Below are positions 9,616-18,329 of a DNA stretch of 56,345 nt, piece by piece. The stretch is from NCBI GenBank assembly GCA_030539175.1, contig JAUNSN010000003.1, positions 1 through 56,345 of the forward strand. Direction: 5' to 3'. The first letter of the stretch is position 1; each line of letters begins with the position of its first letter. The translations under genes were made by a program, and so were the position numbers. The notes beneath the pieces are model-generated. The model ran no database searches, was not told the origin of the DNA, and saw only the letters and a list, made by a program, of their open reading frames with translations. The stretch is from a bacterium. GTDB taxonomy: Bacteria > Bacillota_I > Bacilli_A > RF39 > UBA660.

Positions 9616-11676
9616 CTATTTTTGTTTTACAAGTATTTTTTTAGGCTCGTTATAGATATACAATTTATGCTGAGCTCTAGTACATGCAACATAATACAAA
9701 TTTTTTTCGTTTTCATCATAATCTTTTGGTGTATCATTGCAAATTATTGCACCATCAAATTCCAAACCTTTAGATAAATATGCAGGAATTATAATAATAG
9801 GTTTTTTTACATTTGATGAAGACGATGAAATTAATTGAATACTTTCATCATCGTTAATCATTTTGCATAATGTTTTTGCTCTTTTTAAATCTCTTGTTAT
9901 TATTGCAATTTTAACTAATTCCTCCTTAGTCATTTTATTAATATCTTGTAATAATAGAGGTATAAGACTAGCTTTTTCCACATTTTTTATATCAACAAGC
10001 ATATTATTATTTTTTCTTATTGAACAAACATTATTTAAGCCTAATATTTTATTCGAGTATTCTATTATTTCTTCACTAGATCTATAAGTCTTGTTTAATT
10101 CCAAATATTTTGAAGTTGGAATTAAAGAAACTAAACTTTCTAATGTGTTACTCTTTGAATATGGATTAATCGTTTGATTTATATCTCCTAATATTGTAAA
10201 CGATGAATTTTTAAAAACTTTTTTTAATATTTCTATTTGAAAAGGGGTATAATCTTGGGCTTCATCAATAACAATCTGTCTGATACTATTATCAAATGGA
10301 AAGCCTTTTATTGCGAAATGAATATACAACAAACCAACAACATCTTCGTAATTAATCATATTTCCTCTAATTTCATTATAACCTTTAGACTTCAAAAAGC
10401 AGTTATAAAATTCAAGTAGATTGATTAATAATCCAATTTTTTTAAGTAAATAACTTCTAACATTTTTAACATTTTTTTTAATTGAAACACCCGCTTCAGA
10501 ACATATATATTTGGAAATTTCTTCGATTCTATCAATAATGGCTCCCTTATTGTAGCGAACTAGGAATAACTTTTTTAAAATATCATTAGAAAATTGTTTC
10601 TCTCCGAAAATTAAACCGTTTCCAAAATCTATATTATTCAAATAATCTTTTATGTATTGTTCTAAATCACTTTTATAAGTTGTACACATCTTATATTCAA
10701 TATCAGGCGATGCAAAAATACGTTTAGAATAAATTCTATCCAAATATTCACTAAAATTTTCAATTTTCTTATGCAATTTTAAATGACAACTAGCAAATTC
10801 ACTAAATGTTAGCTTTTGGACATTCTCTTCGCCTAATTCTGGTAATACATCAGAAATATAATCAGAAAAAACATTGTTTGGTGAAAAAATCAAAATATTA
10901 TTAGAATGCAAATTTTTATCTTTATATAATAAATAAGCAATTCGATGCAACGCAACTGAAGTTTTTCCTGAACCAGCAACTCCCTGTACAATGAGATATT
11001 TATCTTTATCATTTCTTATAATTTCATTTTGTTCACGTTGAATAGTGCTAACAATATTTGTCATTTTTTCGTTGGCTGAATTAGATAAAATTTCTTGTAA
11101 ATAATCGTCATCAATATTTATATCGCTTTTAAAACATCTTATAATTTCGCCATTTTCAATTTTAATTTGCATCCTAGTCAATATTTCTCCTACAATTAGT
11201 CCTCCTGGAGTATCATATTGGGCATTTCCTAATTCATAATTATAAAACAAACTTGAAATCGGTGCACGCCAATCAAAAACATAAAAACTAGCATCATCAT
11301 GTATAGAACACATACCAATATATATTTCCTCAGTTTCTTTATATTTATTATTTTTAAAAACTAGTTTTGCAAAGTATGGATTGCTTTTTGCTTTTTCATA
11401 TTTACTAATTAATTTTATTCTTTCGTTTGTAAGTTGTACATTTTGATTTACTTCATACAATGCAGCACCCATTTCTAAATCTGTATAATCTGTTTGATTA
11501 TCCCACATAAATTTTTTTATATTATTTATGTTTTCTTTATCATATTCAATAGATTTATTCTTTTGGGCAATTATTTCAGCTAATATTTTTTTCACAATTA
11601 ATAAATACTCTTTCTCTCTTTTTAATTCCTTTTCACTAATATTCATTTTTCTATCATTTTCCCTTCTATATGACAC
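9616..11676 (-). CDS. helD: UvrD-like helicase, HelD (helicase IV) type
   Basis: Walker A VQGVAGSGKTSVALHRIAYLLY, VIDEAQDY, and C-terminal LSKGLEFD/YVACTRAQHKL motifs of superfamily 1 helicases, with a long N-terminal extension as in HelD. Start is uncertain: GTG at 11676 or ATG at 11646. Confidence 0.8.
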   Translation of the reverse strand: MSYRRENDRKMNISEKELKREKEYLLIVKKILAEIIAQKNKSIEYDKENINNIKKFMWDNQTDYTDLEMGAALYEVNQNVQLTNERIKLISKYEKAKSNPYFAKLVFKNNKYKETEEIYIGMCSIHDDASFYVFDWRAPISSLFYNYELGNAQYDTPGGLIVGEILTRMQIKIENGEIIRCFKSDINIDDDYLQEILSNSANEKMTNIVSTIQREQNEIIRNDKDKYLIVQGVAGSGKTSVALHRIAYLLYKDKNLHSNNILIFSPNNVFSDYISDVLPELGEENVQKLTFSEFASCHLKLHKKIENFSEYLDRIYSKRIFASPDIEYKMCTTYKSDLEQYIKDYLNNIDFGNGLIFGEKQFSNDILKKLFLVRYNKGAIIDRIEEISKYICSEAGVSIKKNVKNVRSYLLKKIGLLINLLEFYNCFLKSKGYNEIRGNMINYEDVVGLLYIHFAIKGFPFDNSIRQIVIDEAQDYTPFQIEILKKVFKNSSFTILGDINQTINPYSKSNTLESLVSLIPTSKYLELNKTYRSSEEIIEYSNKILGLNNVCSIRKNNNMLVDIKNVEKASLIPLLLQDINKMTKEELVKIAIITRDLKRAKTLCKMINDDESIQLISSSSSNVKKPIIIIPAYLSKGLEFDGAIICNDTPKDYDENEKNLYYVACTRAQHKLYIYNEPKKILVKQK

Positions 11677-11712
11677 TCATAACGAAAATCTTTATTATAT
11701 AAAACAATTAAT

Positions 11713-12609
11713 TTAATATAAAACTGGCAAATTCTTCATTATCAAAGCTATCAATTTTTGAATTTTTAAAATGTAATTCTCATTATCAATATTCATTAAA
11801 TAAAAGTGAATATAGGCATTGATTAAACACCATTTTAAAAGATCCTTATCAAAGGTTGTAACTTTTTGATACCCTTGCAAAAAGTTAAAAACATCTTCCC
11901 AATTATCCATAAAAACTTGTGTCGGTCTTAAAACAATTGCCCAAGCAATATCTTGTTCTTTTAATCCCTTTCCACTATATTCATAATCAAGAACACCTAC
12001 AATTTGTTCTTTTTTCCATAAAATATTTGCATAATGAAAATCACCATGAATAAATGAATTGTATTTAATATTCGGTTTATTATCACGTAAATATTTAATA
12101 TAATTTTCAGCGAACGCATCCGTTTTTCGATAAAAATTCTCCTTAGGAAAATCATTTATCGGCCTTTGTTTTGCTACATCAAACTTTAAATATGGAATTT
12201 GGTGTATTTTTGCTAACTCTTTACCATACTTTTCTAAAAAATTTTTACGTCTTACGATATAGCTTTTTTTATTTATAAATTCTGATAATCTACGACCATT
12301 AACTTTTTCTAAAACAATATATTTTTTTTCATTAATTATTCCATGCTCAATTATAGGTGGCATTTTTTCATAATAACCATTATTTTTTAGTAAAGAAATA
12401 TTCTTTACCTCAGCAGCAAAATCAGCCATTTTACTTCGTTCTATTTTTATAAAAAGAGGTACACTCCTTTCATTATATATACATTTACATTCTACAACAT
12501 CATTACCAGCTGGCAAATAATTTATTATTTTTTGAAGTTGGATCTTTTTAAAACTAATTTCCTTTGGATTGATTTCCAACTCACGCCATTTTGGATATAT
12601 CATTTTCAT
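11713..12609 (-). CDS. APH/choline-kinase-fold phosphotransferase
   Basis: Catalytic loop FIHGDFHYANILW and metal-binding VLDYEYSG. Strong RBS AAGGAGG overlaps the end of the upstream PP2C gene. Confidence 0.8.
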   Translation of the reverse strand: MKMIYPKWRELEINPKEISFKKIQLQKIINYLPAGNDVVECKCIYNERSVPLFIKIERSKMADFAAEVKNISLLKNNGYYEKMPPIIEHGIINEKKYIVLEKVNGRRLSEFINKKSYIVRRKNFLEKYGKELAKIHQIPYLKFDVAKQRPINDFPKENFYRKTDAFAENYIKYLRDNKPNIKYNSFIHGDFHYANILWKKEQIVGVLDYEYSGKGLKEQDIAWAIVLRPTQVFMDNWEDVFNFLQGYQKVTTFDKDLLKWCLINAYIHFYLMNIDNENYILKIQKLIALIMKNLPVLY

Positions 12610-12618
12610 AAGTCCTCC

Positions 12619-13479
12619 TTAAATCCTTCTAGTTAAAATTGCAACACTCATATTATCATCTCCACCTAATTTTTCATTGTAATACTCTTCTGAAGATAAC
12701 TTATTATTTAATGAAAAATTATTGATACTATATTCTATTATATTTCTGGGTTTATCAAAGAAACTTGAATTATCTATAATTCTTTTTAAATCGTTATCAG
12801 AAACAGAATCAGTAATGCCATCTGTAAACAAGAAAATATTATCATATTGGTTATTGTTTAAACTTATAGTTTCTATTGAAAGCAATTTTTTGGTACAACC
12901 TAACCTAGATATTATCAAATTATTCTCTTTATGAAATCTAATATCATCTTTTTTTTGAATTGTTCCATTCATATACTTAAGCCAAGCAATAGAAGCATCA
13001 TTAGTAATTTGGACAAAATGATTATTAAATTCGGTATATATCCTTGAATCACCAATATTTATAAAAAATGTTTTTACAGAAGATACAATGGCAAGTGAAA
13101 GTGTCGTTCCACCAGCATTACATGTATGCCTAATGTTAATATCAATCCAATTCATTAATGTTTTTAATTCTTGTAAAATTTCTATTTCGGTATAATAATA
13201 TGAAAATGGAGCATTAACAAACCAGTTTATAATATTATACACAGCTATATTACTAGCTTTTCCACCAAAATCCAAACCGCCCATACCATCTGCAACTGCT
13301 AACAATTTAAAATTTTTATTACTTGGATGTTCCATTATTAGTATAGAATCTTCTTGATTTTTTCTTCTTCCAATATGAGAACTAGCACACATATTTTTCA
13401 AATAATAATTTATACTTTTATAATTTTGTTGCCTGTTATTTATAATATCATCAACACATGAAAAAAATCTTTTTTGCAT
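12619..13479 (-). CDS. PP2C-family Ser/Thr protein phosphatase
   Basis: GRRKNQEDS, LAVADGMGG, LFTDGITD and GGDDNMSVAIL, the PP2C metal-binding motifs. 10 nt downstream of the rSAM gene. Confidence 0.85.
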   Translation of the reverse strand: MQKRFFSCVDDIINNRQQNYKSINYYLKNMCASSHIGRRKNQEDSILIMEHPSNKNFKLLAVADGMGGLDFGGKASNIAVYNIINWFVNAPFSYYYTEIEILQELKTLMNWIDINIRHTCNAGGTTLSLAIVSSVKTFFINIGDSRIYTEFNNHFVQITNDASIAWLKYMNGTIQKKDDIRFHKENNLIISRLGCTKKLLSIETISLNNNQYDNIFLFTDGITDSVSDNDLKRIIDNSSFFDKPRNIIEYSINNFSLNNKLSSEEYYNEKLGGDDNMSVAILTRRI

Positions 13480-13489
13480 AACTCACCAA

Positions 13490-14752
13490 TTAAAAAGTGT
13501 ATGGTAAAGAAGCCATATCGAAAGAACGACAACTTTTTGCACCATTTTTGCATTTATATAAAGGGCATCCTCCAAAACAATCTGGTAACATCTTGCATTT
13601 TATACATTCAGGATCTGCGAACGCTGACATACAACTTTTATACCAAGCAATTACTCTTTCTGGTTTTAAAATAATTTTACCATTGTTATCTATTTTTCCA
13701 ATACAAGCATCAGTATATCCAATATCATTAATACATTTCCAAATGCTTAAGTCGGGCATTAAATAAAACATTTTTCTATCACCACAAGCTTCACAACTTT
13801 GATAATTATATTTTTCTCTTAAAACATTAAACCCTAAATTGTCTCCTATTTCAAAATAAGGCTTTAATTCGGTAATATTGTTCAAGTTTTGTTCTTTATA
13901 AGAATGCGTATTATAAATAATTCTAAACATCAAATAAATATGTTTTCTAGTATTTTTATTAATTTGTTCTAATGTACATTTTATTTTATCTACATTAGTA
14001 TTATTTAAATTTATTCTTAAAATGAATTTAAAATTTTCCAAGTTCGTAGTTAACGGGACTAATGTATTGATTTTATCAATTAAAAAGTCAAATGAAGGTG
14101 CTCCGTTTTTAAATATTCGCATAGTATCATGATTTTCTTTATCAGAATCAATAGTAATTTGCAAAGCATACAAATTATGTTGTAACAATTTGACCAAAAT
14201 GCTTTCGGTTAATAGAGAACCATTAGTGACAATGCTTGTAAAATATTCATAATTTTTTATATTAGAATCATTTTTTACCCAGTTAAGAAATTCCAGGCAT
14301 TCATCTACAAAAAGCAAAGGTTCTCCTCCAAATAAACTAATTTGCACATGATTATGTATTTGAAAATTTTTTTCAGCATATTTTTTTAAAACAGCAAAAT
14401 ATTTCTTTATATTTTCCTTTCCACAACTATAACCCTTTTCACAACAATATGGACATTTAAAATTGCATGCCAAAGATGGAACTAAAATAATATTAAAAAA
14501 GTCTGTTTCAAAAAATTTTTGTTCATATATATACTTTATTTCGGAAAATTCATCTCTATCGTCATCAACAATAAATCCATTTTCATATAACATTTTCTTT
14601 TCTCTTACATTAAGTTTATTAAAATTATCTATATCTTCAATAAAACTAACATCGGCATTTTTTTCTAAAAAAATACTCGCCTTAGAAAAAGCATTATAAA
14701 TTAACACATTTTCAGCATATTTTTTTATTAAATTGTATTTACTTATTTTCAT
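13490..14752 (-). CDS. radical SAM enzyme with C-terminal SPASM-like Cys-rich domain (peptide maturase type)
   Basis: LACNFKCPYCC (CX3CX2C), GGEPLL, and C-terminal CEACGD..WKCIND..C..CIKCKMLPDCFGGCPLYKC. About 95 aa precede the cluster motif, where an RRE could sit. RBS GGAGGG. Confidence 0.88.
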   Translation of the reverse strand: MKISKYNLIKKYAENVLIYNAFSKASIFLEKNADVSFIEDIDNFNKLNVREKKMLYENGFIVDDDRDEFSEIKYIYEQKFFETDFFNIILVPSLACNFKCPYCCEKGYSCGKENIKKYFAVLKKYAEKNFQIHNHVQISLFGGEPLLFVDECLEFLNWVKNDSNIKNYEYFTSIVTNGSLLTESILVKLLQHNLYALQITIDSDKENHDTMRIFKNGAPSFDFLIDKINTLVPLTTNLENFKFILRINLNNTNVDKIKCTLEQINKNTRKHIYLMFRIIYNTHSYKEQNLNNITELKPYFEIGDNLGFNVLREKYNYQSCEACGDRKMFYLMPDLSIWKCINDIGYTDACIGKIDNNGKIILKPERVIAWYKSCMSAFADPECIKCKMLPDCFGGCPLYKCKNGAKSCRSFDMASLPYTF

Positions 14753-14770
14753 AAACCCTCCAAATATTAA

Positions 14771-14790
14771 AAAAGTGAATTATCACTTTT
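14771..14790 (-). terminator. weak hairpin immediately after the precursor stop (possible partial terminator or attenuator)
   Basis: AAAAGTGA-4 nt-TCACTTTT, a perfect 8-bp AT-rich stem. On the minus strand it is followed by TAATATTT and then the rSAM RBS. Confidence 0.3.
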
Positions 14791-14910
14791 TTAATTAGCA
14801 ATACAAAATCCATTGCCTGTACATGCACATGCATCTAAATTATTAAGAACTGATATTTCTTTTTCTTCATCCATAGATTTTCTTATACTTGTATATGCGT
14901 TTGGTTTCAT
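14791..14910 (-). CDS. 39-aa Cys-rich precursor-like peptide MKPNAYTSIRKSMDEEKEISVLNNLDACACTGNGFCIAN
   Basis: First gene behind the promoter at 14957..14985 and 38 nt upstream of the rSAM gene. Charged leader-like N-terminus, three Cys in the last 13 residues. No strong SD; alternative starts are GTG at 14934 (47 aa) or ATG at 14874 (27 aa). The 79-aa track ORF would start upstream of the promoter. Confidence 0.6.
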   Translation of the reverse strand: MKPNAYTSIRKSMDEEKEISVLNNLDACACTGNGFCIAN

Positions 14911-14956
14911 TTTATTTAATTTTAAGATTTTCACTATTCCATTTCTCTTTATAAAT

Positions 14957-14985
14957 ATTTTAATAGAACGAATAAAAAAAGTCAA
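14957..14985 (-). promoter_or_regulatory. sigma-A-type promoter TTGACT-17 nt-TAAAAT for the peptide/rSAM operon
   Basis: Read on the minus strand: the -35 element is at 14980..14985 and the -10 at 14957..14962, with an exact 17-nt spacer, about 45 nt upstream of the ATG at 14910. Confidence 0.55.
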
Positions 14986-15038
14986 GAATTGTATGGTAAT
15001 TGTATTCACAAAAAAGGATAAACACCGCACTAAATGTA

Positions 15039-15067
15039 TTGCTATAAATAAATTTATCAGTTATAAT
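15039..15067 (+). promoter_or_regulatory. divergent promoter TTGCTA-17 nt-TATAAT for the 15088 gene
   Basis: The -35 element is at 15039..15044 and the -10 at 15062..15067. A GGAGG RBS follows, 9 nt before the ATG at 15088. Confidence 0.55.
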
Positions 15068-15087
15068 TAAAATGGAGGCAAGACAAA

Positions 15088-15474
15088 ATGAGTAAAGTAA
15101 AAATTACATGTAATAATAATTACAAATTTCATTCATATAATGGTTATTCATATCATAGTAAGGGTTGTAATAAAGACTTTTTTGTCGATATAAATAATAT
15201 TTCTCCCTATATAATTAATAGTCCCTGTGACAAACTTACTATTTTAGTTGTACCATGCCCTTATTGTTATGAAATTATTGAACTATCTAATTTAACAAAA
15301 GATCAACGAGATAAAATATTACAAACATCCAAAGATATTGATCCATATATACAAACTAGTATATTAGATTTACAAAGAGATAAATATAATATTAAAAAAC
15401 TATTAACAACCGTATCAGAACAACTAGAAAATCAACAAAAGCATTATACAAAACAATTAAAACAACCAAAATAA
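15088..15474 (+). CDS. small Cys-containing protein of unknown function (possible zinc-ribbon plus coiled-coil tail)
   Basis: Good RBS and promoter. Cys at ITC, KGC, SPC and CPYC. The C-terminal third is K/Q-rich and helical-looking. Confidence 0.6.
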   Translation: MSKVKITCNNNYKFHSYNGYSYHSKGCNKDFFVDINNISPYIINSPCDKLTILVVPCPYCYEIIELSNLTKDQRDKILQTSKDIDPYIQTSILDLQRDKYNIKKLLTTVSEQLENQQKHYTKQLKQPK

Positions 15475-15484
15475 TGGTTGTTTT
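15459..15484. terminator. bidirectional hairpin between convergent genes
   Basis: AAAACAACCA-6 nt-TGGTTGTTTT, a perfect 10-bp stem spanning both stop codons. Confidence 0.5.
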
Positions 15485-15947
15485 AATACTTACTGGCACT
15501 ATTTATAAGTAAGTTATAAATATTTATTGTACAAATTAAATTTAATCTCTTTATTCGTAAATCTTGACTATATATTTTAGCAATTTCACTATCTAATTGA
15601 TGCTTTTTTAGTACTTCAATATACATATCTATATAATTATCTAAGAATACTAAATAATTATTTCTACTAACCATTATATTATTAATATCTTCTTTTATTA
15701 TAGCATTATAATCATTATCTATCTCAATATCTAAAATAACATAATCATTATTACTAATACCATCAAATATTTTACGATAATTATCAAAACTCAAATAATC
15801 ATTAAATGTTATATCATAATTTCTATATCCATTACTAATATCACTTTCTTCATTAAAAACTAATTTACTATTATTTTTATGAAGCCAAGAGTAACAGCAA
15901 ATACTAAACAAAAAAACAATTATAAGAGACAATATTTTTATTTTCAT
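15483..15947 (-). CDS. hypothetical exported or membrane-anchored protein
   Basis: N-terminus MKIKILSLIIVFLFSICCYSW looks like a signal peptide. No recognisable domain. Confidence 0.5.
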   Translation of the reverse strand: MKIKILSLIIVFLFSICCYSWLHKNNSKLVFNEESDISNGYRNYDITFNDYLSFDNYRKIFDGISNNDYVILDIEIDNDYNAIIKEDINNIMVSRNNYLVFLDNYIDMYIEVLKKHQLDSEIAKIYSQDLRIKRLNLICTINIYNLLINSASKY

Positions 15948-16528: not shown

Positions 16529-16732
16529 ATGTTTTTAAATATTATAAATTTTTTAAAGTTATGTGTTGGTTGGCGATTATTTTGTTTTGTAATATCTTTA
16601 GTACTTACTATTGTCGTTCTTTATCAAGCGATATTAACAGTATTTTTCACTATTAAACTAAATGCTTTTATACTTTTAATTGAATATGTTGCCTTACTTT
16701 GTTCAACTGGTTATACTATTTTCGGATATTAA
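16529..16732 (+). CDS. small hydrophobic protein (two predicted TM segments)
   Basis: ATG at 16529 follows GGTAGGTGA. The product is almost entirely hydrophobic. Its 3' end overlaps the convergent 16703..17593 gene. Confidence 0.35.
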   Translation: MFLNIINFLKLCVGWRLFCFVISLVLTIVVLYQAILTVFFTIKLNAFILLIEYVALLCSTGYTIFGY

Positions 16733-17593
16733 TGCTAAGGTCTTATATAAATAATCAATTGATTTTCTTACCTTTTTACATAATTCATATTGACTACCAG
16801 TAAGAGAAATTTTATCAGGTATACAAAGTATAACAAAGAGTAATAGTTTTTCTTCTTCCATTAATGGATATATACTTTCATAATACTTAAATATTTCGTT
16901 AAAATCAAAATCTAAATAATGTTTTTTATAAAGAACATATATATCATATATTGGCATATCAATTTTACTTTTTTCCCAACTGATAAAATAACTTTTATCA
17001 TTTTTTATATAATGTTCTAATTCTAAATTATTATGAATATTTACTACTCTTTGTCTTCTTTTATCTTTAATTAACTTATACCATTTTTCTAACGTTTTCT
17101 TACTATAATCAATAGATTCATATATTATATTAATATTTCTAGCAATCAAATAACTAACTGGTGACATATATACTTCGCTTTCAATTATATTAATAATATC
17201 AGTATAATAATTATATAAGTATTCAATATTCTTTAATAAATCTTCATATATCTTCTTATAATCATCAATATCCACTTCTTTATAAAAGGTAGTCTTACTA
17301 TGTAACATTGCCATTAATTTTACTAAATCTAATATTTTTTGTTCGCTAGGTTCATCATAATCACTAATATACTCAAATACATCATATTCTGGATCATTAA
17401 TTATTTTATCAGGATAATAATTAAAAGCTCGAGATTTTAAATAATTATAAACTGCATCTATGTTATTATTCTTTTTCTTTTTTATAACATATTTTCCCTT
17501 GTTAGTATCAAGTATACGAACATCTTTTTTTTGTGTGTATCTATTTAATTCTAACTTATATTTGTTTAAAAAATCTTTAACACTATTCATCAT
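16703..17593 (-). CDS. CotS/YsxE-family spore-coat kinase-like protein (degenerate catalytic loop)
   Basis: VNIHNNLELEHYI sits where kinases carry HGDxxxxN, and ISWEKSKIDMPIYDI is an IDWD..P..D-like motif. Overlaps the spoVID-like gene by 11 nt, matching the Bacillus spoVID-ysxE order. Confidence 0.5.
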   Translation of the reverse strand: MMNSVKDFLNKYKLELNRYTQKKDVRILDTNKGKYVIKKKKNNNIDAVYNYLKSRAFNYYPDKIINDPEYDVFEYISDYDEPSEQKILDLVKLMAMLHSKTTFYKEVDIDDYKKIYEDLLKNIEYLYNYYTDIINIIESEVYMSPVSYLIARNINIIYESIDYSKKTLEKWYKLIKDKRRQRVVNIHNNLELEHYIKNDKSYFISWEKSKIDMPIYDIYVLYKKHYLDFDFNEIFKYYESIYPLMEEEKLLLFVILCIPDKISLTGSQYELCKKVRKSIDYLYKTLALISENSITS

Positions 17594-18329
17594 TACTATA
17601 AGGAATTATTAATTTATCACCTACCTTTATTTCCGTTAAATCATTATAACTAGCAAGTATTTCTTTAGTAACTTTATATTTTTGTAAAATATTATCTAAA
17701 TTGTCTTTTTCTTTTACAATATATACTTTATATGTAACAAAAGTCTCATTATTATCAATATTTTCAAAAACATCAATATCTACTACATCATCATTTGCAT
17801 TATTCACTTTTTCTTCTAACTCCAAATCTAAATTAACGACATCTTTTTTCTTAAAAACTACACTCATATCTTCTTCTAAATCAAGACATCTATTATCCTC
17901 TTTATCTTCTTTTATGTTATCTATTTCTTCTATCTTATTGGTTTCCTTTATTATTTTGTCTTTTTCTAAATTATCCCGAGAATCAGACATAATATCAGTA
18001 TTTTTAAGTTCAGCACCCTCAATATATACATCAATATTAACTTTTAATATATCGTTATTAATTATCTCATAATAAAAATCTTCTATATCAATAACCATAT
18101 TATTAATATCAAATCTTGAATCCATCGCTATATCAAATGGTAACGTAAAACTAAATGGTTCTTTGTTAATACTAGCCTCAGTCATTTTATAATCTCCGCT
18201 AATATGAAATTCACCACTTATAAGACTATCTTCTTCTAAAGAAAGAGTATGTTCTAGGGAAATGCTAGTAATTTCTGTAATTTGTGTTTTAAACTTTAAC
18301 TCTTTTTTAAAGGGAATAACTTTTTTCAT
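17583..18329 (-). CDS. SpoVID-like sporulation protein (N-terminal SPOCS-like region, acidic middle, C-terminal LysM)
   Basis: C-terminal YKVYIVKEKDNLDNILQKYKVTKEILASYNDLTEIKVGDKLIIP is a LysM motif. The N-terminus ITSISLEHTLSL..ISGEFHISGDYKM resembles the SpoVID N-domain pattern. Confidence 0.55.
   Translation of the reverse strand: MKKVIPFKKELKFKTQITEITSISLEHTLSLEEDSLISGEFHISGDYKMTEASINKEPFSFTLPFDIAMDSRFDINNMVIDIEDFYYEIINNDILKVNIDVYIEGAELKNTDIMSDSRDNLEKDKIIKETNKIEEIDNIKEDKEDNRCLDLEEDMSVVFKKKDVVNLDLELEEKVNNANDDVVDIDVFENIDNNETFVTYKVYIVKEKDNLDNILQKYKVTKEILASYNDLTEIKVGDKLIIPYSNDE

Follow-up and report, generated by a model that had tools for sequence, protein, structure and literature searches.

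A conserved three-cysteine peptide encoded beside a CteB-like radical SAM/SPASM maturase as the probable precursor of an undescribed family of modified peptides

When a very short open reading frame (ORF) lies directly upstream of a gene for a radical S-adenosylmethionine (SAM) enzyme, is it a gene in its own right, and what would the enzyme make of its product? This question is raised by a locus on contig JAUNSN010000003.1 of GenBank assembly GCA_030539175.1, from a bacterium of the RF39 lineage UBA660 (Bacilli_A); the 56,345-nucleotide stretch that was analysed is referred to below as the window. From the letters alone, an earlier reading, here called the original prediction, had proposed that the ORF encodes the precursor of a ribosomally synthesised, post-translationally modified peptide (RiPP). 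The comparative analysis presented here indicates, with a probability of about 0.8, that the 47-residue product of 14791..14934 is the precursor of an undescribed family of radical-SAM-modified RiPPs, the modification itself being suggested by the genomic context.

The comparison drew on 553 maturase homologues in the database, on 78 loci given by a genome scan and, for the motif count that was run later, on 86 loci. Of the 86 loci, 33 contain the motif DACxCTGN, each of them a single time, six-frame translation showing no second occurrence; its ORF always lies on the same strand as the maturase gene, 27-200 nt upstream. It accompanies every maturase that is at least about 38% identical to that of the window, except at locus L023 (38%), where the degenerate version DACQCTD is present. 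Across the family the core block reads D-A-C-x-C-T-G-N-(0 or 2 residues)-C, and all three Cys are invariant; in the numbering of the window peptide, D34, A35, C36, C38, T39, G40, N41 and C44 are fixed family-wide, and the tail IAN varies. The expectation that related loci would hold a conserved small ORF at the equivalent position, and that its last residues with the three Cys would be preserved beside homologous radical SAM genes, is thereby borne out. Moreover, a database search with a profile built from 25 family peptides returned 120 proteins, 119 of which carry DACxCTGN; all are unnamed or labelled 'hypothetical protein', including the window peptide itself, annotated by NCBI as the 47-aa hypothetical protein Q4G04_00750 (P0121 among the profile matches). 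One database member of the family carries the core twice in tandem (DACTCTGNCDACTCTGNC). More distant enzymes, of 29-38% identity, adjoin peptides which keep only the degenerate motif Q-C-x-C-T-D-x-x-C-x-C, so that the invariant heart of the wider group is C-x-C-T.

The invariance lies in the amino acids and not in the nucleotides that encode them. Seven invariant core codons are written in 28 distinct nucleotide versions, and the pooled synonymous differences are saturated (pS 0.79) while the non-synonymous ones are nil (pN 0.000). This is selection at the protein level, which excludes both a chance ORF and an RNA element, and on these comparative grounds the segment is read as a translated gene under strong purifying selection. 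The opposite view, that the ORF is not a functional peptide gene, being either a product of chance or an upstream ORF in the maturase messenger's 5' leader with a regulatory role only, could appeal to the GTG start with its weak Shine-Dalgarno (SD) sequence in the window and to the lack of any match between the peptide and the models of Pfam and NCBIfam. Such a view leaves unexplained why the amino acids are invariant despite saturated synonymous change, why strong AGGAGG sequences precede the gene in relatives and why the small ORF occurs across phyla; it is effectively refuted and carries a negligible probability. An antisense ORF on the plus strand (14813..15070) was also considered and rejected, as the pattern of variation across codon positions fits the minus-strand frame instead.

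Where translation begins can be decided with fair precision from the same alignments. The minus strand of the window encodes a frame ending in MKPNAYTSIRKSMDEEKEISVLNNLDACACTGNGFCIAN and closed by the stop TAA at 14793..14791, and the three starts that had been listed for it all exist: GTG at 14934 (47 aa), ATG at 14910 (39 aa) and ATG at 14874 (27 aa). The N-terminus VKILKLN aligns with the family motif (M/V)K-I-(I/V/L)-K-(V/L)-N (alignment A2), which places the start at the GTG, and SD pairing reaches -6.6 kcal/mol there against -1.8 and -2.5 kcal/mol for the two ATGs. Given the leader motif, the position of the SD sequence, a column-conserved TTGAC -35 box and the 47-aa form in the NCBI annotation, the GTG start is the best-supported one for the window precursor. 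The 39-aa and 27-aa forms, which are without SD pairing and would delete the conserved leader motif, were rejected, and the 39-aa form headlined in the original prediction probably begins eight codons late. The description of an acidic leader has likewise to be given up, as the 47-aa form holds seven Lys or Arg against five Asp or Glu and is charged but not acidic. The putative boundary between leader and core was placed where the invariance begins (Table 1).

Table 1. Position of the precursor gene, its control elements and the neighbouring genes in the window
Feature	Position	Strand	Description
Precursor peptide gene	14791..14934	minus	47 aa + stop, VKILKLNKMKPNAYTSIRKSMDEEKEISVLNNLDACACTGNGFCIAN; GTG start, read as Met
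Leader region, residues 1-33 (putative)	14836..14934	minus	conserved N-terminal motif (M/V)K-I-(I/V/L)-K-(V/L)-N
Core region, residues 34-47 (putative)	14794..14835	minus	DACACTGNGFCIAN
Radical SAM/SPASM peptide maturase, 420 aa	13490..14752	minus	N-terminal RRE-like domain; PF04055, TIGR04085, AF2 model
Sigma-A-type promoter	14957..14985	minus	-35 TTGACT 14985..14980, 17-nt spacer, -10 TAAAAT 14962..14957; 10/12 match
Conserved stem-loop	14766..14795	minus	13 bp ATTAAAAAAGTGA/TCACTTTTTTAAT, loop TAAT, then AAUAUUU; overlaps precursor stop codon
PP2C-type Ser/Thr phosphatase, 286 aa	12619..13479	minus	probably co-transcribed; link to peptide uncertain
APH/CotS-type phosphotransferase, 298 aa	11713..12609	minus	probably co-transcribed; link to peptide uncertain
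HelD, RNA-polymerase recycling motor	9616..11676	minus	NCBIfam equivalog, 496.8 bits vs cut-off 419

The second line of evidence is the enzyme. Throughout the loci compared, the precursor gene keeps the same partner: immediately downstream of it there is always a member of one orthologous group of maturases combining a RiPP recognition element (RRE), a radical SAM barrel and a SPASM domain. In the window, this gene has a strong ribosome-binding site (GGAGGG at 14761..14756) and an ATG at 14752, and its product scores 42.8 bits on PF04055 (cut-off 29.5) and, over residues 323-403, 32.7 bits on the SPASM model TIGR04085 (cut-off 27). The CxxxCxxC cysteines C96, C100 and C103 are invariant in 21 maturase homologues, as are C320, C340, C383, C386, C392, C396 and C408 towards the C-terminus, with C323 nearly so. 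The AF2 model (pLDDT, a per-residue confidence score, 87.7) shows an N-terminal domain of three strands and three helices (residues 7-81), followed by the barrel and the SPASM domain. In this domain, modelled at a pLDDT of about 90, the predicted strands 7-11, 15-20 and 26-30 and helices 41-44, 49-57 and 68-81 form an RRE-like fold; no Pfam PqqD match was found. The best solved relative over the full length, by sequence and fold together, is CteB (5wgg/5why), with a fold alignment of 437 columns, and the best full-length NCBIfam neighbours (residues 1-400) are CefB with 170 bits, TIGR04463 with 154 and Clo7bot with 142, PapB scoring 78. Judged from the model, the architecture is that of a leader-dependent peptide maturase of the CteB-like RRE/radical SAM/SPASM kind.

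From these parts a pathway can be proposed. The maturase would use its RRE domain to dock the leader with its motif MKI(I/V)K(V/L)N and, by means of a 5'-deoxyadenosyl radical and the SPASM auxiliary clusters, would cross-link the core, most probably through thioether bridges of the ranthipeptide or sactipeptide type that tie the three invariant Cys to carbon atoms of the likewise invariant Asp, Thr or Asn. Up to three such thioethers, involving D34, T39 and N41, would leave a small and rigid polycyclic peptide. As defined in PMC8326336, the ranthipeptide linkage is a thioether between a Cys sulfur and the beta or gamma carbon of the acceptor residue; according to the same paper, CteB uses the gamma carbon of Thr as acceptor, whereas the beta carbon of Asp is used in freyrasin and that of Asn by NxxcB. 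Thioethers are proposed because the invariant core holds three Cys together with exactly these acceptor types, D, T and N. By analogy with these systems, the thioether chemistry itself, with up to three bridges and a compact polycycle, is given slightly better than even odds; sactipeptide-type C-alpha links or a non-sulfur reaction are possible.

Several observations weigh against this interpretation of the pair. The SD sequence of the window precursor is degenerate, AAAGAGAAA standing where relatives have AAAGGAGG; in those relatives AGGAGG lies 6-9 nt before the start codon and SD pairing amounts to -9.6 to -16.4 kcal/mol. The earlier remark that the gene has no convincing SD is therefore right as to its weakness and wrong as to its absence, and with this sequence and a GTG start the expression of the window precursor could be low. 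The operon of the window is without exporter or protease, and the maturase passes no named NCBIfam equivalog cut-off. Furthermore, the structural matches that follow CteB are TigE (8vpo; a cyclopropylglycine synthase, second in rank), anSME, SuiB, ChlB and SkfB, and the fold of the maturase does not fix its reaction, since TigE (cyclopropyl formation), SuiB (C-C cross-linking) and anSME (oxidation) carry out other reactions.

This diversity among fold-close SPASM enzymes leaves some room for a peptide that is a substrate of the maturase and is modified other than by thioethers, through a C-C or C-O cross-link, epimerisation, cyclopropanation or Cys oxidation. In that case the role of the invariant Cys would be to ligate an auxiliary Fe-S cluster or to bind a metal in the product, and a Cys of the CteB substrate that is not cross-linked does ligate an auxiliary cluster (PMC8326336). 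On the other side, Cys-rich peptides are the substrates of the nearest NCBIfam families and of the nearest solved structure alike, with thioethers wherever the chemistry is known, and the three invariant Cys are accompanied by exactly the ranthipeptide acceptors D, T and N, so that a non-thioether modification is considered unlikely, and the thioether-bridged product is retained as the working proposal.

The pair belongs to a well-known kind, that of CteA/CteB, which makes thermocellin, a SCIFF-type ranthipeptide of Clostridium thermocellum. CteB shares the RRE, radical SAM and full SPASM domains, a small Cys-rich precursor likewise lies directly upstream of the enzyme, and, as a further likeness, some lineages of the new family have a two-gene cassette without exporter or protease. 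The Cys-to-Thr thioether made by CteB is a precedent for the invariant C-T pair of the new core. However, fold-aligned identity between CteB and the window maturase is only 16-18%, and the SCIFF maturase model TIGR03974 gives 55 bits against a cut-off of 425. SCIFF precursors have about 45 residues with six Cys, whereas the window peptide has 47 residues, three Cys, no SCIFF motif and an unrelated core.

Likeness to other families is of the same partial sort. CefB (NF038107), TIGR04463 ('very short Cys-rich') and Clo7bot (TIGR04334) also combine a short Cys-rich peptide with a radical SAM/SPASM enzyme, but the 142-170 bits which they give on the window maturase compare with equivalog cut-offs of 525-600; when ten family peptides were searched against NCBIfam to E <= 10, no model was found, including the partner-peptide models of those families. 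To our knowledge, these three families are largely uncharacterised. The window core contains N-G-F-C, and hence the NxxC spacing of NxxcA/NxxcB from Streptococcus orisratti, but this spacing (N-[GSD]-x-C) is confined to the Bacilli clade, most family members having N-C directly, and the NCBIfam matches of the maturase include no NxxcB model. The invariant Asp of the core, placed two residues ahead of a Cys, recalls the Cys-to-Asp thioethers of freyrasin (PapA/PapB); freyrasin's repeated CX3D motifs are missing here, and the PapB model NF047865 gives 78 bits against a cut-off of 340. With cut-offs missed widely and a different peptide motif, the system is not SCIFF, PapB, CefB, TIGR04463 or Clo7bot. 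A full-text literature search for the motif, which did not reach subscription-only papers, found nothing relevant. The family thus appears to be a new one within a well-known kind.

How the precursor is expressed relative to its enzyme can be approached from the two control elements that flank it. A match such as TTGACT-17-TAAAAT is not acceptable by itself, because promoter-like sites are equally frequent in shuffled versions of the AT-rich window (21 against 19.9). When the 75 nt upstream of the start codon were aligned for 15 loci, the TTGAC box fell into one column in most of them, and about 17 nt further on comes a -10-like hexamer, in many cases TGTGnTATTGT, ahead of the SD sequence. The distance from the end of the -10 box to the start codon is 21-24 nt in the window as well as in L004, L005, L008, L009 and L017. 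With its position thus conserved, the promoter stands where it had been predicted, the precursor is the first cistron after it, and the predicted transcription start of the operon is near 14950. Moreover, the minus-strand gene that precedes the peptide operon is closed by a terminator-like site at 15456..15487, which argues that the operon needs a promoter of its own. This site, a 13-bp stem-loop with a T run, is located between the convergent ends of that 154-aa gene (minus, 15483..15947) and a 128-aa gene (plus, ending at 15474), and it resembles a bidirectional terminator.

The hairpin predicted between the precursor and the maturase is also real, but it comprises 13 bp, at 14766..14795, and not the 8 bp first described. 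Its free energy of folding, -12.7 kcal/mol, corresponds to z = -4.6, and among 200 shuffled sequences there is not one that folds equally well. A stem-loop occurs at the same place, directly 3' of the precursor stop, in nearly all relatives, and in those of the Clostridia it takes the classical form, a GC-rich stem with a T run behind it. Among 13 sequences of the Bacilli clade, 93% of the pair cells are paired, compared with 49-61% when the partner is slid; compensatory changes affect five of ten pairs, and the covariation score of 0.415, against 0.17 at most, is reached in none of 500 shuffles. A search of 14600..15200 against Rfam gave sub-threshold chance matches only, which indicates that the stem-loop is not a known RNA family.

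Its function is less plain than its existence. In the window the stem has two G-C pairs only, its U run is mostly contained in it, with six U within the 3' arm, and a scan for terminators does not report it. Since the stem is so poor in G-C pairs and is passed over by the scan, partial rather than full termination is envisaged, and the likeliest role, from the sequence pattern, would be partial termination combined with 3'-end stabilisation between precursor and maturase. The stem-loop would let only part of the transcripts through into the maturase, phosphatase and kinase genes and would shield the short precursor messenger, so that substrate would exceed enzyme. A short precursor cistron with its own promoter, followed by a stem-loop before the biosynthetic genes, is also the layout of bacteriocin and RiPP operons such as sboA-alb and nisA-nisB; in comparison, the window stem is AT-rich, overlaps the stop codon and carries a clade-conserved GTGA...TCAC, which may point to more than plain termination. 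The conserved positions of promoter and stem-loop fit a separately tuned precursor cistron. As a separate observation, the GTGA...TCAC of the upper stem (window 14783..14786 and 14775..14778; columns 21-24 and 36-39 of alignment A3) is kept in 11-13 of the 13 Bacilli-clade loci, while the lower stem covaries freely. This conservation exceeds what pairing needs and could mark a protein-binding or processing site.

Is the product exported, or does it act within the cell? The family counts more than 100 members, from Bacilli of animal and human guts, Clostridia, spirochaetes, Elusimicrobia and archaea. In L018, L022 and L024, contigs assigned by binning to Methanothrix, Nanoarchaeota and Candidatus Methanoperedens carry the pair, with a core identical to the bacterial one, and these archaeal occurrences reflect either horizontal transfer across domains or binning error. 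When the ORFs of 30 non-redundant loci were compared all against all, only the maturase proved universal. In 11 loci, nearly all of them outside the Bacilli clade, the pair is followed by ABC transporters; several loci add a second radical SAM gene, five share a protein of about 320 aa that belongs to no family, and two encode an acyl-carrier-protein-like protein of about 90 aa (noted at 7257..7533 in L025/L081). By their gene content, the clusters outside the Bacilli clade look like ordinary export-type RiPP clusters, and because ABC exporters follow the same pair in these other lineages, the product is probably secreted.

A less probable alternative is that the product, instead of being a secreted antimicrobial, acts within the cell as a peptide of the housekeeping or cofactor-like type, as SCIFF, PqqA and mycofactocin do. 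The invariance of the core, which extends over phyla and domains, from Bacilli and Clostridia to Methanothrix, Methanoperedens and a Nanoarchaeota metagenome-assembled genome (MAG), would then be accounted for, being a trait expected of cofactor-like or housekeeping peptides more than of antibiotics. The alternative would also suit L079, a Clostridia MAG in which the pair is found alone among housekeeping genes, and the operons of the window clade, which lack exporter, protease and immunity gene and occur in small genomes (1.34 Mb for the chromosome of L006). Nevertheless, exporters directly after the pair in 11 other loci recall classical secreted RiPPs, and no downstream cofactor-processing enzymes are conserved family-wide.

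The remaining genes of the window operon could in principle add to the pathway. Gaps between maturase, phosphatase and APH-type kinase genes are at most 10 nt, and 36 nt precede the gene for HelD. The order of peptide, radical SAM, PP2C and APH genes is fixed in 13-14 loci with 47-72% maturase identity, all belonging to a single clade of Bacilli, uncultured gut bacteria of animals and humans with small genomes of low GC content. The catalytic motifs of PP2C are invariant (alignment A4), and those of the kinase are also kept. HelD adjoins the block in 14 loci, downstream, upstream or on both sides. In L009, L010 and L017 it lies upstream instead of downstream, so that the linkage survives rearrangements, and in L084 (5772..7745 and 11032..13131; also in L085) two HelD paralogues, 46% and 43% identical to that of the window, flank the block. 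For the window HelD itself, the listed GTG start has SD pairing of only -1.3 kcal/mol and the profile match begins at residue 11; translation probably begins instead ten codons further downstream, at an ATG near 11646.

If the phosphatase and the kinase tailored or regulated the RiPP, for example by reversible phosphorylation of the invariant Thr or of Ser and Thr in the leader, with HelD coupled as well, the tight spacing and fixed gene order, kept while HelD moves, would find a reason, as would the preserved catalytic motifs. Kinases of the APH fold do act on peptides in the pathways of class III-V lanthipeptides. Lone orthologues of the kinase, with 49-58% identity, were nonetheless found in unrelated contexts (L086 7001..7885, L088 7001..7867, L090 5146..6027); as close as or closer than those in some of the operons, they stand without radical SAM gene, PP2C or peptide, and after they were found the two enzymes were downgraded as dedicated tailoring candidates. 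The association is limited to one clade, in which vertical synteny can explain it, the family occurs elsewhere without both genes, and PP2C relatives of 36-37% identity occur without the maturase. A metagenome scan with a single PP2C sequence found nothing, and its repeat seeded with the PP2C alignment, independent of the peptide motif, returned generic PP2Cs apart from one further operon, which carries the same peptide. A part for these enzymes in the pathway is hence improbable: because kinase orthologues stand alone and PP2C relatives occur without the maturase, both are treated as co-transcribed neighbours of uncertain relevance, and HelD as a neighbour and not a demonstrated part of the system. 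PADLOC gave superfamily-level matches only (viperin-like, UvrD-like) for the operon proteins and thus no evidence for a defence system. The L088 kinase is located near spoVIF and spoIVA, and the APH-type kinase may be a lineage-wide, possibly spore-related (CotS-like) gene.

Further upstream, the divergent 128-aa ORF (15088..15474, plus strand) was rejected as a part of the system, having no family and no homologue in any related locus. It has a good ribosome-binding site, a Cys-rich N-terminus (C..C...C..PCPYC) and a coiled-coil-like tail, and no match in Pfam, NCBIfam or PADLOC. At 17583..18329 (minus) the window encodes a LysM/SpoVID-N protein, followed by a 296-aa protein without Pfam match (16703..17593), a pair which recalls spoVID-ysxE of Bacillus; although its relatives have small genomes, the bacterium from which the window comes appears to form spores.

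As a speculative extension, to which very little probability is attached, DACxCTGN..C could define a class of radical-SAM peptides that is constrained across domains by a conserved cellular target or by a cofactor-like or metal-binding role, unlike antibiotics that evolve fast. In this clade of gut Bacilli with small genomes, its product would act inside the cell under a PP2C/APH phospho-switch, possibly on transcription in view of the lasting linkage to one or two HelD motors, which could provide target protection.

What began as a context-based guess is now a defined precursor family, with an exact motif, a start codon, a leader motif and a cognate CteB-like enzyme. The occurrence of DACxCTGN beside a radical SAM/SPASM gene provides a simple handle for annotation and the basis for a family model. 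In turn, the peptide offers a compact substrate with three Cys for finding out at which carbon such enzymes attack Asp, Thr or Asn, and the invariance of its core across domains raises the question of a conserved target or role of the product.

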